From a virus (lineage: Duplodnaviria; Heunggongvirae; Uroviricota; Caudoviricetes): DNA of 7,138 nucleotides. The notes under the pieces were generated by a model that worked only from the letters and a program-made list of their open reading frames with translations, was not told where the DNA came from and ran no database searches. Positions within the stretch are counted from its first letter, which is position 1. Each line of letters opens with the position of its first letter. The position numbers and the translations under genes were made by a program. Shown here in pieces: positions 1-7,138 of this stretch. The stretch is from the IMG/VR virus record IMGVR_UViG_2711768034_000004; one strand, given 5' to 3'.

Positions 1-206
1 GGAACAACCTGTTCTCCGGCGGCGACAGCAGTAAGACTTCCTTCCTGGTATTGCTTACGCCAGAGAAATAACTGGCTGGCTGCTACACCATGTTGCCGGG
101 CAACGAGGGAGACCGTCATCCCCGGTTCAAAGCTCTGCTGAACAATTGCGATCTTTTCCTGTGTGGTACGCCGTCTGCGTTTCTCCGGCCCTAAGACATC
201 AATCAT
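1..206 (-). CDS. insC: IS2 transposase OrfA (InsC), N-terminal 68 codons; partial, 3' end outside window
   Basis: ATG at 204-206 on minus strand, preceded by GGAGAACAG. Translation [68 protein letters not shown] matches recalled IS2 OrfA. Absent from the ORF track because there is no stop in the window. Confidence 0.85.
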
Positions 207-297
207 CTGTTCTCCAATGACTAGTCTAAAAACTAGTATTAAGACTATCACTTATTTAAGTGATATTGGTTGTCTGGAGATTCAGGGGGCCAGTCTA
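1..297 (-). mobile_element. IS2 insertion sequence, left-end portion (terminal inverted repeat plus start of orfA); element continues past window start
   Basis: Reverse complement of 1-297 reads TAGACTGGCCCCCTGAATCTCCAGACAACCAATATCACTTAAATAAGTGATAGTCTTAATACTAGTTTTTAGACTAGTCATTGGAGAACAGATGATTGATG..., which I recognise as the IS2 left terminus. Terminal CCAGTCTA lies at 290-297; flanking sequence changes character at 298. Confidence 0.88.
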
Positions 298-3119
298 GTT
301 AACGACCTGACAGTTATATCCTGATTCCATCCGGAAACAACAACCTGACTCCACGCTGTCCAGTTTCCATTAACAACAAAGCGAACGTATATACGTTTTG
401 TGTCGCTGTTAATCAGCGTTTGCATGTTCGCATAATCTGAATCCCTAACCTTACGAGTCGACTCTACACGGAGCAAAAAGTTACCGGCTATGCCGTCAGG
501 CTTATTGGTAATATTTGCACCACCTGCAGAGGATGGACAAATATAGTATTTAACTGCCCCGGCATCTGACTTGATGATGGTCAGGTTGTTAAGATTAACC
601 GTCTGGCCGTCAATGTTTTCCGGCTCGATGGCTCCTGCTATCCCGGCACTGAACGTAGCAACGGCTGAAAACGCTGTCGTACCTTTGAAAGCCAGTTGAC
701 CACCAATCGTTAATCCCTTGTCGAGTTTCGCTTGCGTGATCAATTTGCTGTTTTGTTTCTGATCAGGACTCTCACCAAAAGCCAGATCCCCATTAGTATC
801 AATTCCAAGATACTTTGGGTTCATGTTGTCTAACTTAAACCCAATGGACACATTTTCAGAAGAACCAGAACGCGTTAAAACCAACGGCGTGTGCTGTACT
901 CCATAGATGCTGAGCGTAGTTGCCGATGAGTCAGTGTCGGTATTTGCAATCTCAATCGTTCTGCTTTTAATTTTATACGCTACTGTGAGATCACGGACTT
1001 CAACCCTCCCGTCGTGACGAACAACAAGATCCCCTCCTGATGTCCCCCCTGCTGTCTTTGCCCTGATGCGAACTTCGCCAAGCGAATCAGTGTTAGGACC
1101 AGCATAGATTATGCCGCGCTCTGTGTTATCGCCAGTATAAAACCGCAAAGCGGTGACTCCACTGTCTGCCCGCAGGAAGACTGACGGTGTACCTTTTTTG
1201 ATTGTCAAGTCACAGGTCATTGTATCGCCGGTTTTTTTTACCTGCGCATCGTTCGTTACGTTGCCAAGTCCAACATCCGATTTCGACGGCTTGTTTGCCG
1301 AGCCGTATAGCTCATTGATGCTAAAAGTCCCGTTGTTAAGCCGGGCATCGTTGCCGGCATAGATCTTAATCTTCGCGGTTGAGTAGTCGATATTGATCGC
1401 TGACCACGTATCGCCGCACCGCGAGAATATACCAGAACCGTGGCTATAAATGGTCGCCGTGCTTCCGGTCGGCTTATCACCGCGCCAGAAATGACCACCT
1501 TTGTCACGCAGAGCTTTTAAGATCTCTACATCGCTCATCTTGCCGTTTGTTGATATCCCGCTACCGCCAAGACCGAAAGCGCCTGTAAGCATAGCATTAG
1601 AAAGACCCAAATCTGCTTTAGTCGGCTTGTTTAACTGGTCGTAAATCCTTACAACGGGGCTTTCAACATATCCAGAAGGCGCGGCGGTTTGCTTAACAAA
1701 TCCGTCTGGAATGTATAATTCCGTGCGTGCCGTCTGCGCCAGTACCGCAACCTTTGCGCCGTTGATAAATGCACGCTGGAAGGCCCAAACCTCAATAAAG
1801 CCATCATCTTTAACCAGGCCGTAACGCATTTGCATGCTATTGATTAGCCCGGTTGGCCCTAAACGGCGTATACTCAGGTAACGAGATACATTATCAGCAG
1901 TAAGCGAAGAAGGCAGACCGCGCGCCGAGATCTCGATAAAGTCAATGTTTCCGTAAGGGGAGCCGTAGTCACCGCCGTTAGTAACCATTAGCGTTACATG
2001 GCAATTGTTGCTTCCGGGATCGGAAAGTTTCGCGATCTTTATGTAAAAAGACTCATTACCAGTAACAACGGGCCAATCGTATTGCGTCATCGGGCTGACG
2101 AGTCCCCCGACCTTGTCGAGATATTCTTTCGCCTTGTTCTCTGACGCTTTAGCGTTGGTTTCGCTGACCTTTGCTGCTGACTCACTATTTTTCGCGTTGG
2201 TTTCTGATTTTTTGGCTGCTGTCGCGGAATTTGCCGATGCAGTTTGTGAGTCTGCTGCCGCCTGTGCGCTGTTATCCGCATTCATCTCAGACGTTTTTGC
2301 GGCCTTCGCGGAATTTCCTGCCGCCGTTGCCGAGGAAGCTGCACTGCCGGCGCTCGAGGCTGCGCTCGTTTCTGATGATTTTGCCGCCACTTTTGAAGCC
2401 GACGCATCCCGGGCTGAGGTGGCAGCTTCTGACGCTTTCGTGGTCGCGGTGGATGCAGAAGTGGCCGCAGATTTTTGTGATGCTGCGGCATTCGTTTCTG
2501 ACGTTTTCGCTGCACCGGCACTGGTGGCTGCCGCGCTTTTTGAAGACTCTGCAGCGGCAGCACTTTTTGATGCTTCAGTAGCCTTTGTTGATGCCGTTCC
2601 TGCGCTGGAAGACGCTGACTGAGCCGACGACGCGGCCTGTCCGGCTGACGTGCTGGCTGCGCGTGCGGAGTCCGCAGCATCAGTCGCATGGGTTGCCGCC
2701 TCACGGGCTGATGTGCGGGCATCACTGGCTGACTTCTTCGCGGCTGCCGTGTTCTGTGCCACTGCGGACGCGTTACGCGCCACCTCTTCCACCATCAGTT
2801 CAAAGCGGCGCAGTGCCTCCGGACGGACATCATCCTCCGTCATGGCACCGAGAAAATCATTCAGCGTACCCGGTTGTGAGTCTTCATACACGGTGATGGT
2901 CCCGGCATGCGATGGCGGGAAGCCTTCCACCAACAGAATAACGCTGTACTGACCGTACTCAACGTCCATGCTGTAACGCCCGGCTTCATCCGGGTTTTCT
3001 GAGGCCACTGTGTTCACCACCACCGTGGTGCTGTTGCGCCTGGCCTTTAGCTGAATGGTGCAGTTTTGTATCGGCTTACCTGCGCCATCTTTCAGTACAC
3101 CTGAAATCCGTACTGCCAT
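282..3119 (-). CDS. stf: Lambdoid side tail fiber protein (lambda Stf homolog), 945 aa as read; 3' end interrupted by IS2, which supplies the last 4-5 codons and the stop
   Basis: N-terminal ~110 aa (MAVRISGVLKDGAGKPIQNCTIQLKARRNSTTVVVNTV...GRYSMDVEYGQYSVIL...FPPSHAGTITVYEDSQPGTLNDFL) is near-identical to recalled lambda Stf (orf-401) N-terminus. This is followed by an Ala/Ser/Thr-rich repeat region and a ~600 aa distal domain. ATG at 3117-3119 is preceded by a G-run RBS. The ORF reads across the IS2 boundary at 297/298: ...VRSLT then RLAP-stop from IS2. Confidence 0.85.
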   Translation of the reverse strand: MAVRISGVLKDGAGKPIQNCTIQLKARRNSTTVVVNTVASENPDEAGRYSMDVEYGQYSVILLVEGFPPSHAGTITVYEDSQPGTLNDFLGAMTEDDVRPEALRRFELMVEEVARNASAVAQNTAAAKKSASDARTSAREAATHATDAADSARAASTSAGQAASSAQSASSSAGTASTKATEASKSAAAAESSKSAAATSAGAAKTSETNAAASQKSAATSASTATTKASEAATSARDASASKVAAKSSETSAASSAGSAASSATAAGNSAKAAKTSEMNADNSAQAAADSQTASANSATAAKKSETNAKNSESAAKVSETNAKASENKAKEYLDKVGGLVSPMTQYDWPVVTGNESFYIKIAKLSDPGSNNCHVTLMVTNGGDYGSPYGNIDFIEISARGLPSSLTADNVSRYLSIRRLGPTGLINSMQMRYGLVKDDGFIEVWAFQRAFINGAKVAVLAQTARTELYIPDGFVKQTAAPSGYVESPVVRIYDQLNKPTKADLGLSNAMLTGAFGLGGSGISTNGKMSDVEILKALRDKGGHFWRGDKPTGSTATIYSHGSGIFSRCGDTWSAINIDYSTAKIKIYAGNDARLNNGTFSINELYGSANKPSKSDVGLGNVTNDAQVKKTGDTMTCDLTIKKGTPSVFLRADSGVTALRFYTGDNTERGIIYAGPNTDSLGEVRIRAKTAGGTSGGDLVVRHDGRVEVRDLTVAYKIKSRTIEIANTDTDSSATTLSIYGVQHTPLVLTRSGSSENVSIGFKLDNMNPKYLGIDTNGDLAFGESPDQKQNSKLITQAKLDKGLTIGGQLAFKGTTAFSAVATFSAGIAGAIEPENIDGQTVNLNNLTIIKSDAGAVKYYICPSSAGGANITNKPDGIAGNFLLRVESTRKVRDSDYANMQTLINSDTKRIYVRFVVNGNWTAWSQVVVSGWNQDITVRSLTRLAP
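2130..2780 (-). repeat. Low-complexity Ala/Ser/Thr/Lys-rich repetitive segment inside stf (about aa 114-330)
   Basis: Translated segment AAAKKSASDARTSAREAATHATDAADSARAASTSAGQAASSAQSASSSAGTASTKATEASKSAAAAESSKSAAATSAGAAKTSETNAAASQKSAATSAS... consists of degenerate short periodic motifs, as in lambda Stf / T4 gp37-type fiber shafts. It generates several long spurious ORFs on the opposite strand and in other frames. Confidence 0.7.
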
Positions 3120-3130
3120 ATTCCCCCCAC

Positions 3131-3155
3131 AAAAAAACCCGCCTGAACCGGCGGG
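3131..3155 (-). terminator. Candidate rho-independent terminator between lom remnant and stf
   Basis: Plus strand A7 (3131-3137) then CCCGCC (3138-3143), 6-nt loop, GGCGGG (3150-3155). On the minus-strand RNA this is a 6-bp GC stem followed by U7, 29 nt after the lom stop and immediately upstream of the stf RBS. Confidence 0.5.
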
Positions 3156-3183
3156 CTGTCATAACACTGTGTTACCTGGCTAA

Positions 3184-3384
3184 TCAGAATTTATAACCGA
3201 CACCCACGATGAAACCGTCAGTGCGCCAGTCACCACTGCCGGAACCTTCATAAGCAATATCAATGGCCACGGATTCGGTCGGGTTAAACTGCACGCCAGC
3301 CCCCCACGCCAGAGACGTGTTGCTGTGGCGACCGTCATCACTTCCGGTCAGCACATCGTGCGTTTTCCCCTTGTTGTCAGTTAG
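3184..3384 (-). pseudogene. lom: lom (Ail/Lom-family outer membrane protein) C-terminal fragment, about 65 codons, no start codon
   Basis: Minus-strand translation ends ...SLAWGAGVQFNPTESVAIDIAYEGSGSGDWRTDGFIVGVGYKF-stop (stop at 3184-3186), matching recalled lambda Lom C-terminus ...SVAWSAGIQINPAASVVVDIAYEGSGSGDWRTDGFIVGVGYKF. The frame is closed upstream by a stop at 3418-3420 with no ATG, so the N-terminal two thirds of lom are missing. Confidence 0.75.
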
Positions 3385-3829
3385 ACGGTCATGGCATCCA
3401 TGGCTGGCTGAAAATATTCACCGCAGTGCGGACATGGCCAGTACCAGCGGCGGCGGTCACCACGATTGTAAAGGGAAAGAATACCAGTCGTCGGTGGCGC
3501 TTCATGAGGCGACTTACGTCGCCATTTGCTGTCGCAGATGTCACGTCCCGGCGAGCTCTCCACCAGAGTCATCCCGGCGGACATAAATGTGGTGGTACGT
3601 TTTGAGGCCTGGGAGAAACCATCACCCTCGCTGTCGATATTCTCCGGAAAACGGTCGTAATCGGTTAAGGCGACAAACCGGTAACGGGGTTCCCCCTGAC
3701 AGTCGCAGCCACAGGAGTGTTGGCCGCGAGGAGCCGTTTTTTTACTGTGTCCCGGTGAAGCCCAAAGGCCTCGGCGATTTTAAAAACACTCCAGTAATAA
3801 GCATCACCGATCCCGCTCACATTTGACAT
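3381..3829 (-). pseudogene. Terminase / DNA-packaging gene remnant: Nu1-like (Noh) N-terminal HTH segment, frame-disrupted, continuing into a short gpA-like segment; truncated
   Basis: ATG at 3827-3829 with GGAG 6 nt upstream gives MSNVSGIGDAYYWSVFKIAEAFGLHRDTVKKRLLAANTPVAATVRGNPV..., stop at 3665-3667. The segment IAEAFGLHRDTVKKRL...RG resembles lambda Nu1 LADIFGASIRTIQNWQ...LRGGG. A second frame, open 3779 to 3381, continues sensibly: YRFVALTDYDRFPENIDSEGDGFSQASKRTTTFMSAGMTLVESSPGRDICDSKWRRKSPHEAPPTTGILSLYNRGDRRRWYWPCPHCGEYFQPAMDAMTV. Its CPHCGE and ESSPGRD...SKW..KS motifs resemble the lambda gpA region recalled as EGSPTFLGDKRIEGSVWPKS...ACPHCGEE. The two frames meet near 3680-3695, a G/C-run region. 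Confidence 0.5.
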
Positions 3830-3989
3830 AAGCAACTCCATCTGGCAGGTGAAAATCAGGTTTATTTATATATTTCAATTAATTGCAAACTAGTCTAATG
3901 ACAGGGAGAAAAAAATATTGTACAGCTGAAAAGAGAAATAACTTTTAATTATCAATAAATTACCAAACATGCTGCCGCCGCCATGGAAA

Positions 3990-4060
3990 TGCAAAAACTA
4001 GCCTTTTTCCGCGACGCTCCCGCCCCGTGGCAGGGACCCCCACTGGGAGGACCCGACAGC
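3990..4060 (-). other. Candidate cos (cohesive end, cosN-like) site of the ancestral phage
   Basis: Isolated GC-rich block in an AT-rich region. Minus-strand reading GGGGCGGGAGCGTCGCGG (plus 4009-4026) resembles lambda cosN GGGCGGCGACCTCGCGGG, and lies about 200 nt upstream of the Nu1-like start codon (lambda: about 190 nt). An AT-rich tract suitable for cosB/IHF lies between it and the gene. Confidence 0.4.

Positions 4061-6313: not shown

Positions 6314-7138
<825 letters not shown>

Follow-up and report, generated by a model that had tools for sequence, protein, structure and literature searches.

A stretch of cryptic prophage DNA from Escherichia coli raises the question of why the reading frame of a side tail fiber gene, stf, comes to its end inside an insertion sequence, and how much of the fiber is missing. 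The DNA analysed here, called the window, is a stretch of 7,138 nucleotides from the IMG/VR virus record IMGVR_UViG_2711768034_000004. The interrupted gene is stf of a decayed Qin-type cryptic lambdoid prophage of E. coli. We propose, with a probability of about 0.93, that IS2 transposed into stf at codon 941/942 of 1258 and duplicated the target GTTAA.

IS2 at the left edge of the window

The reverse complement of window positions 1–297 is identical at 297/297 bases to positions 1–297 of IS2A of E. coli K-12 MG1655. The stretch (minus strand) is the left 297 bp of IS2, a member of the IS3 family, in agreement with the sequence-only reading of this locus. IS2 continues past the left edge of the window, with only these 297 left-end bp lying inside it. 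In strains 127 and EC190486, RefSeq labels the same stretch "IS3-like element IS2 family transposase". IS2 is a repeated element in E. coli, with a median of 4 matching places per genome and many genomes carrying several copies.

The IS2 left inverted repeat (IRL) lies at the element boundary, at 256–297 on the minus strand, and reads TAGACTGGCCCCCTGAATCTCC... on that strand. Its reverse-complement match to IS2A positions 1–42 corresponds to the 42-bp length given for this repeat in PMC3299598, where the transposition mechanism and repeat lengths of IS2 are described. The sequence-only reading had placed the boundary feature at 256–300, nearly the same span. The outer 15–16 bases of the IRL are the end of the stf fusion frame described below. 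The right end of the element is …GGGGCAAATCCA on the IS2 strand.

Positions 1–206 (minus strand) hold the 5' part of IS2 orfA (insC), 68 codons that run in the same direction as stf. The fragment matches profile positions 1–68 of 121 of NCBIfam NF006928, "IS2 repressor TnpA" (E = 3e-44). Its score of 150 bits stays under the whole-protein cut-off of 229, since the window edge cuts the protein. The element at the same site in EC190486 is annotated with an intact programmed-frameshift transposase.

The junction and the fusion reading frame

The IS2 end (...GGGGGCCAGTCTA) falls at position 297 and host sequence begins at 298 (GTTAACGACC...). The sole long open reading frame across the 297/298 boundary is the stf::IS2 fusion on the minus strand at 282–3119. 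It encodes 945 residues, 941 native ones followed by Arg-Leu-Ala-Pro and a stop, with the C-terminus ...ITVRSLTRLAP and without further stops in the frame. The codon of Thr941 (299–297) consists of two host bases and one IS2 base, and threonine is kept. The IS2-encoded tail occupies 282–296 on the minus strand, where Arg (296–294), Leu (293–291), Ala (290–288), Pro (287–285) and TGA (284–282) can be read directly from the sequence. It had been claimed that the stf frame crosses the boundary and takes its last residues and its stop codon at 282–284 from the IS2 repeat, and the codons bear this out. When the fusion is aligned to the Stf protein of strain HS, divergence starts exactly past Thr941.

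The fusion is assigned to Stf by the Pfam domain PF08400, "prophage tail fibre N-terminal", which covers residues 1–134 with 242.5 bits against a cut-off of 26.6; the domain spans 1–134 in the HS protein as well. A search of 5426 complete E. coli genomes finds the 100-bp junction, identical at every base, in 8 of them. The recurrence of the same junction in eight independent complete genomes is therefore no chance match. In a scan of one genome per species, the 43-bp junction was absent from every species-representative genome.

Target-site duplication and the far side of IS2

Window positions 298–302 (no strand assigned) hold GTTAA, the one copy of the 5-bp target-site duplication visible in the window itself. 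The whole IS2 of strains H2 and EC190486 is bordered by GTTAA at both ends, and the empty site of HS has a single GTTAA. The other end of the element had been named as the place to look for a duplication and the rest of the fiber locus. Both are found there in H2 and EC190486: past the second GTTAA come the 317 stf codons lost here, then a 126-bp remnant of tfa and the invertase gene pinQ. Removal of IS2 and one GTTAA from H2 in silico gives a 1258-aa open reading frame identical to HS Stf at 1256 of 1258 residues, and the 60-bp rejoined site is present verbatim in HS. For the IS2-free site, 200 genomes reach a coverage of at least 80%.

The far side of IS2 lies outside the window, and its neighbors in the window's genome are inferred from these relatives. 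The relationship is close: window 1–3383 matches strain H2 at 100%, and the 945-codon frame differs from strain w264 by one base in 2822. For the whole window there is no collinear record in the collection; strain H2, which matches best, aligns in four pieces.

Later rearrangement of the site is common among relatives. In six of the eight junction genomes IS2 has shrunk to a 131-bp stump, a deletion between 7-bp TACGCCG repeats having taken away most of the element and 147 bp from the 3' fragment of stf. Strain 127 has moreover acquired a second IS2, which is flanked by a duplication of its own, CTCAG. In the window, as in H2 and EC190486, IS2 is still present over 297 bp or more. An intact homolog in strain Res13-Lact-PEB21-38-A is a 625-aa S74 protein that continues past VRSLT.

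The part of the fiber that was lost

The intact Stf of HS (WP_000290867.1) has 1258 residues and is near-identical to the window's frame over residues 1–941; at the DNA level, window 298–3383 is 99.87% identical to the HS region. The Stf proteins of phages Ayreon (1252 aa) and mEp460 (1202 aa) likewise run about 317 residues beyond ...ITVRSLT, and all three end in ...LTGSEH. Had intact homologs ended at ...ITVRSLT, the insertion would have lain at or after the natural stop; none of them does. The window's Stf is missing 317 residues, 942–1258 of the 1258-codon gene, and the expectation of a fiber altered at its distal tip is supported.

The lost distal module comprises about 173 residues of mature distal fiber and a Peptidase_S74 intramolecular chaperone of about 144 residues. 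PF13884 (Peptidase_S74) is located at 1115–1166 of the HS allele and scores 45.5 bits (cut-off 22); the motif SDRDLK (Ser-Asp-Arg-Asp-Leu-Lys) is at 1115–1120. Besides the intact allele, only the displaced H2 fragment has the domain, and the window's 945-aa frame lacks it. The profile of PHROG 6578, "tail fiber protein", reaches its last position in the intact allele only. On this domain content, the ancestral stf appears to be one of the S74-chaperone fibers, a group to which the truncated frame would no longer belong. NCBIfam gave no family for either intact or truncated Stf, so no position could be assigned to the RefSeq product label "pyocin knob". When the C-terminal 584 residues of the intact allele were compared by sequence with solved structures, the matches were all weak (6F45, a phage long tail fiber distal subunit, and 4UXE, T4 gp34), and T5 pb1 was not reached.

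The sequence-only reading also held that a downstream tfa chaperone gene and an invertase gene were displaced beyond the element. The loss of a chaperone and, in relatives, the far-side location of the displaced sequence and the invertase gene hold. The tfa part needs amending: what separates stf from pinQ in the relatives is no more than a 126-bp pseudogene of tfa, and tfa is not annotated after stf in phages Ayreon and mEp460. What the domains point to is the loss of the distal module together mainly with the fiber's own C-terminal S74 chaperone, not of a Tfa-dependent tip.

A prophage already defective

Directly upstream of stf in the window are a 5'-truncated lom, a terminase fragment and a nohA-like fragment, and the window contains neither J nor any other tail gene. 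The insertion struck a prophage that was defective beforehand, its head and tail genes having been lost. These upstream remnants and the lack of any J or tail gene therefore indicate a fiber that had no virion to decorate even before IS2 arrived. The lom 3' fragment (3184–3354, minus strand) matches Pfam PF06316 Ail_Lom at profile positions 145–199 of 199, its last 55 codons. In lambdoid phages lom precedes stf. It is full length in H2 and HS, where a J fragment is found as well, and the order J-lom-stf is seen in phages Ayreon and mEp460, which places the window's gene in the position of an stf.

A consensus scan located a terminator-like hairpin (AGCCCGCCGGTTCAGGCGGGTT followed by a T-run) at 3136–3157 on the minus strand, after the lom remnant and ahead of stf. 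Ayreon and mEp460 have annotated terminators at the corresponding place between lom and stf. A promoter scan of 1–4000 found no sigma-70-like site. The lineage of the window's genome has also lost 2.9 kb in lom/J and carries an IS3 at 6842, both changes being specific to it.

Proposed course of events and alternative explanations

In the proposed course of events, IS2 would have transposed into codon 941/942 and duplicated the 5-bp target GTTAA. The stf frame, which reads into the IRL because IS2 and stf share direction, enters the repeat for 15 bases, adds Arg-Leu-Ala-Pro and stops. The insertion parts the N-terminal attachment domain and shaft (1–941, in the window) from the distal module (942–1258), which would lie beyond IS2, as it does in related genomes, and be followed by the tfa remnant and pinQ. 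In characterised fibers the C-terminal S74 chaperone guides trimerisation and folding, as established by work on T5 pb1 (PMC4690869) and by Schwarzer 2007 and Schulz 2010, both cited in that paper. The truncated product lacks the distal module and, by this analogy, would be expected to fold badly if it folds at all. The suggestion that the fiber is probably non-functional fits a frame from which both chaperone and distal module are missing, with misfolding as the likely consequence. We infer that the 945-aa frame is the remains of a dead gene, in a prophage whose virion genes had already gone.

The far side of the element is where another history has a small but real chance of being right. The IS2 of the window's genome may no longer be a simple insertion, with a later deletion, inversion or recombination with another copy having removed the stf 3' part, the tfa remnant and pinQ from its immediate neighborhood. 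The TACGCCG-repeat deletion in six of the eight junction genomes, the second IS2 of strain 127, the 2.9-kb lom/J deletion and the IS3 at 6842 in the window's own genome all point to continuing rearrangement, and several IS2 copies (median of 4 matching places) are common in E. coli genomes. However, bases 1–297 of the window's IS2 are unchanged, a state shared only by H2 and EC190486, the two genomes in which the element is complete and its duplication intact. Moreover, such a rearrangement would alter what adjoins IS2 on its far side, not the truncation of stf. By comparison, almost no credence can be given to an insertion at or just past the natural stop that left the fiber essentially complete. 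VRSLT is a conserved joint between fiber modules and might suggest a domain end, but every intact homolog examined (HS, Ayreon, mEp460 and Res13-Lact-PEB21-38-A) extends about 317 residues past it, and 200 genomes have the site uninterrupted; the HS alignment and the phage Stf comparisons rule this reading out. An assembly artefact is just as implausible. IS copies are classic sites of misassembly, where contigs can be misjoined, and the window starts inside one, but eight independently sequenced complete genomes share the identical junction. Together with the two genomes that carry a whole IS2 and a perfect 5-bp duplication, H2 and EC190486, in which excision restores the gene exactly, they rule the artefact out.

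It is very improbable that the 945-aa protein still serves as a shorter fiber, or that the separated 3' fragment serves as a module reservoir for infecting lambdoid phages. The 945-codon frame is free of stops, with one base changed in 2822 relative to w264 and full identity to H2 over 1–3383, but conservation among such close relatives is uninformative on selection. Modules are exchanged at the VRSLT joint, as seen in mEp460, which is 91% identical at 934–1112 and about 18–23% identical at 341–933. Against a retained function stand the missing S74 chaperone (PMC4690869), the lack of any J or tail gene in the window and the ongoing decay of the locus in relatives. IS2 lies within the conserved VRSLT joint, two to seven codons in, exactly where mEp460 homology resumes. 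This leads to the speculative and very doubtful idea that IS2 favors module joints as targets and that copies lodged at such joints promote the swapping or loss of receptor-binding modules, which would make the insertion a part of tail fiber module shuffling instead of plain decay. A coincidental location is by far the likelier account, because only one insertion event stands behind the idea.

The simple insertion of IS2 into stf is an ordinary gene-killing event of an already known kind, and RefSeq already labels the H2 gene a pseudogene. The correct label for the 945-aa open reading frame is an IS2-disrupted stf pseudogene, not a functional fiber. The junction is a clean lineage marker at 8 of 5426 complete E. 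coli genomes, and with the later stump deletion and the second IS2 it makes a small case of stepwise IS-driven decay of Qin. The Qin locus of some E. coli, namely HS, retains a full-length S74-type fiber, unlike the StfQ/TfaQ of K-12. Beyond annotation, the significance is little.

Comparison with known systems

We have compared the window's gene and its intact allele with phage fibers, with the K-12 Qin locus and with a resident IS2 of K-12. The Ayreon, mEp460 and HS Stf loci share with the window the (J)-lom-terminator-stf order, PF08400 and an Ala/Ser-rich shaft. They have an extra 317 residues or so, the distal module and S74 chaperone, in place of which the window's frame has RLAP.

The intact allele resembles T5 pb1 and the K1F endosialidase in its C-terminal PF13884, in the Ser...Lys motif at the start of the domain and in a predicted coiled-coil end as in pb1. 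In pb1, the last 133 residues are cleaved off by the protein itself through Ser1264 (PMC4690869). Self-cleavage of the pb1 type and chaperone-dependent trimerisation may be suggested for the intact allele only by analogy with Ser1264. Similarity to solved structures is weak outside the chaperone, and the likeness to pb1 comes from the shared Pfam domain and the literature. The C-terminal module of the intact allele also matches the tail fiber of phage slur09 at 69% identity.

The K-12 Qin stfQ-tfaQ-pinQ segment is the same locus, flanked by ydfJ, ynfT, ydfK and pinQ at one side and by gnsB, ynfN, cspI and rzpQ at the other. K-12 has a 320-aa StfQ, a complete tfaQ and an abutting nohA, whereas in the lineage of the window stf has 1258 codons and is of the S74 type, with only a 126-bp tfa remnant. 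A megablast of the window's stf region against the fetched K-12 Qin segment, with stfQ included, gave no match.

The closest parallel to the insertion itself is IS2A in yaiX of K-12 MG1655. Both have the same element end and the same orfA, with a 5-bp duplication, seen for the present site in relatives. Around IS2A, yaiX is annotated as two fragments, and the interrupted stf is likewise split into two. The sole difference is the target, here a prophage tail fiber gene, with the left 297 bp of the element contained in the window.

The stf reading frame terminates within IS2

The window comes from a cryptic lambdoid prophage of E. coli, of the Qin type. Its right side carries gnsB, ynfN, cspI and rzpQ, ordered as in K-12 Qin, and its left side a lambda-type late-operon remnant, in which nohA-like, terminase and lom fragments stand together with stf. 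Once reverse-complemented, window 1-297 agrees at 297/297 bases with positions 1-297 of K-12 MG1655 IS2A, placing the left end of IS2 on the minus strand. The first 68 residues of OrfA (1-206, minus strand) match NCBIfam 'IS2 repressor TnpA' with E = 3e-44. Since the left inverted repeat of IS2 is 42 bp long (PMC3299598), it occupies 256-297, and the IS2/host boundary lies at 297/298. The sole long ORF spanning this boundary encodes 945 aa (282..3119, minus strand), opens with PF08400, the N-terminal domain of prophage tail fibres (minus strand; Pfam, 242 bits), and ends in ...ITVRSLT-RLAP. The Thr941 codon takes two bases from the host and one from IS2, with Thr retained, while the R, L, A and P codons (296-285, minus strand) and the stop TGA (284-282, minus strand) lie wholly within the IS2 repeat. 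The sequence-only reading had flagged 256-300 as the site of the insertion, taken 1-297 as IS2, and had the stf frame cross at 297/298 to acquire RLAP and a stop codon from IS2; this observation is confirmed in every detail.

IS2 and stf are co-oriented, so any stf read-through would run into IS2 on its sense strand. A simple scan of 1-4000 showed no sigma-70-like promoter. It should be mentioned that Stf residues ~120-340 (window 2100-2760, minus strand) form a long Ala/Ser/Thr-rich low-complexity stretch of AAxSAxxS-type repeats, so that several other frames, of either strand, show ORFs that are long but spurious, e.g. 2113-2622 (+) and 2282-2725 (-). These are not to be called genes.

Extent of the truncation

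At the same locus without the IS in E. coli HS, stf is a 1258-aa ORF (WP_000290867.1). Over residues 1-941 the HS protein and that of the window are near-identical; the HS protein then runs on with TSSPVKSGGGRIDVLG... through to ...LTGSEH. Judged from this alignment, stf in the window is truncated, and 317 C-terminal residues are absent from its ORF. The fibres of lambdoid phages Ayreon and mEp460 (Stf of 1252 and 1202 aa, respectively), both with the order J-lom-stf, align through to the same C-terminal end as HS Stf. Homologs ending naturally at ...ITVRSLT, the case against a truncation, do not occur among these three, all of which continue. The last position of PHROG tail-fibre profile 6578 is reached by the intact allele only.

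A simple insertion shared with relatives

A 100-bp junction-centred probe was searched in 5426 complete E. coli genomes. The IS2-stf junction was found at 100% identity in eight, and a 100-bp probe for the empty site was at least 80% covered in 200. As the window ends inside IS2, the far side was read from junction-sharing genomes. Strains H2 and EC190486 retain the whole IS2 at this site, with GTTAA preceding its right end (TGGATTTGCCCC...) and a second GTTAA after its left end; the pair is the 5-bp duplication expected of IS2. When IS2 and a single GTTAA are taken out of H2 in silico, a 1258-aa ORF results that is 1256/1258 identical to HS, and the rejoined 60-mer is present verbatim in HS. 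The whole IS2 with its duplication in both strains and the restored frame in H2 rule out an assembly artefact and establish a simple insertion. Beyond IS2, both strains carry a 963-bp stf 3' fragment, a 126-bp tfa pseudogene and pinQ. In these strains the native distal part of stf is displaced past the IS, as had been proposed; of the tfa gene and invertase named with it, the invertase is present but tfa is only a pseudogene. From these relatives, the same arrangement would adjoin IS2 in the window's own genome.

The H2 copy (L001 6966-8297) is 1332 bp long and differs from K-12 IS2A by an additional A (alignment column 1226) and a single substitution; the annotation gives it a shortened orfB, a CDS of 822 bp. 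At this site in EC190486 the frameshift-fusion transposase is intact.

Six of the eight junction-sharing genomes have kept no more of IS2 than its outer 131 bp (window 167-297), which is the same insertion at a later stage of decay. In w264 (L004 5990-6131), a deletion between two 7-bp TACGCCG copies took ~1.2 kb of IS2 together with 147 bp of the stf 3' fragment. The stump is also seen in strain 127 (L009 4340-4470), and KMi012, STS73-1-E, OZ501612 and KFu024, matched from window base 167, are expected to have a w264-like stump. Strain 127 carries a second, complete IS2 (L009 2967-4297) in the stf 3' fragment, 42 bp from the stump and flanked by its own duplication CTCAG; the same dead gene was thus hit twice independently by IS2. 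IS1A insertions are suggested in stf of strains 04A19CPO007, Ec-U7 and 2017-03-3CC.

The lost distal module and its chaperone

Residues 1115-1166 of the intact allele form a Peptidase_S74 domain, Pfam's 'chaperone of endosialidase' (45.5 bits vs cut-off 22), opening with SDRDLK at 1115 and followed by a predicted coiled coil. The domain is also present in the displaced H2 fragment and absent, by Pfam, from the 945-aa ORF. In the T5 tail fibre pb1, the S74 chaperone is removed by Ser1264-dependent self-cleavage once the fibre has trimerised and folded, and folding is proposed to begin at the chaperone coiled coil (PMC4690869, which cites Schwarzer 2007 and Schulz 2010). We infer that the insertion takes away the ~144-residue chaperone along with ~173 residues of the mature distal fibre. 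The truncated protein of 945 aa should then be without the distal module and poor at folding or trimerising.

The sequence-only reading had any downstream tfa chaperone gene displaced by the IS. The chaperone that is lost is the intramolecular S74 domain; no tfa is annotated 3' of stf in Ayreon or mEp460, so for this type of fibre Tfa is not the chaperone that matters. In the relatives, pinQ and the 126-bp tfa remnant seem to be left over from a different arrangement of modules, e.g. the complete stfQ-tfaQ-pinQ of K-12. The Qin locus has at least two fibre versions. The HS type (L003 5872-5997, 5184-5774) combines the 1258-aa self-chaperoning Stf with the tfa remnant and pinQ, whereas the K-12 type (L005 5623-7848) has a 320-aa StfQ, complete tfaQ and pinQ. 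The window stf region gave no megablast match to the fetched K-12 segment.

IS2 entered the gene two to seven codons inside a conserved joint, VRSLT, at which the distal module is exchanged between phages. mEp460 Stf is about 18-23% identical to HS Stf over residues 341-933 and 91% over 934-1112, homology resuming at ...VRSLTTS. This mosaic joint, (D)xxVRSLT, spans Stf residues 934-941 (window 298-320), and the target GTTAA falls within its codons. Most of the mEp460 shaft is unrelated to the window Stf, while VRSLT to the C-terminus (L008 4001-4975) is 91-96% identical; FritzHoffmann and slur09 carry this distal module too, at 69-75% identity. The landing of IS2 at the joint is most likely coincidence, being a single event.

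Other lesions of the prophage

Even before the IS2 insertion there was no virion left for the fibre. In HS and H2, J is already truncated and fused to a terminase fragment. The window has lost more: compared with H2 and HS, ~2.9 kb are missing, made up of the 5' part of lom and the remaining fragment of the tail-tip gene J, with a junction at about 3383; this deletion was seen in no genome of the collection. It joins (window ~3375-3390) a 55-codon lom 3' remnant straight to the terminase large-subunit fragment, with 1-2 bases of microhomology and one mismatch alongside. An IS3 left end (TGATCTTACCCAGC...) occupies 6842-7138, beginning 30 bp past the rzpQ start codon; in K-12 its place is the 3' end of the lysozyme gene rrrQ. 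The H2 IS3 has the same orientation and lies in ynfN, equivalent to window 5386/5387. With differing sites, the two IS3 insertions are independent.

Comparison with known insertions

The sequence-only interpretation is supported, amended for the S74 chaperone, the already defunct prophage and a far side read from relatives. RefSeq describes the same H2 ORF as 'prophage tail fiber N-terminal domain-containing protein, incomplete, missing C-terminus', beside an IS2 transposase. The event is of a kind already known. In the IS3 family, transposition is by copy-out and paste-in through a circle and leaves a 5-bp duplication (PMC3299598); stf::IS2 is a textbook insertion of this family.
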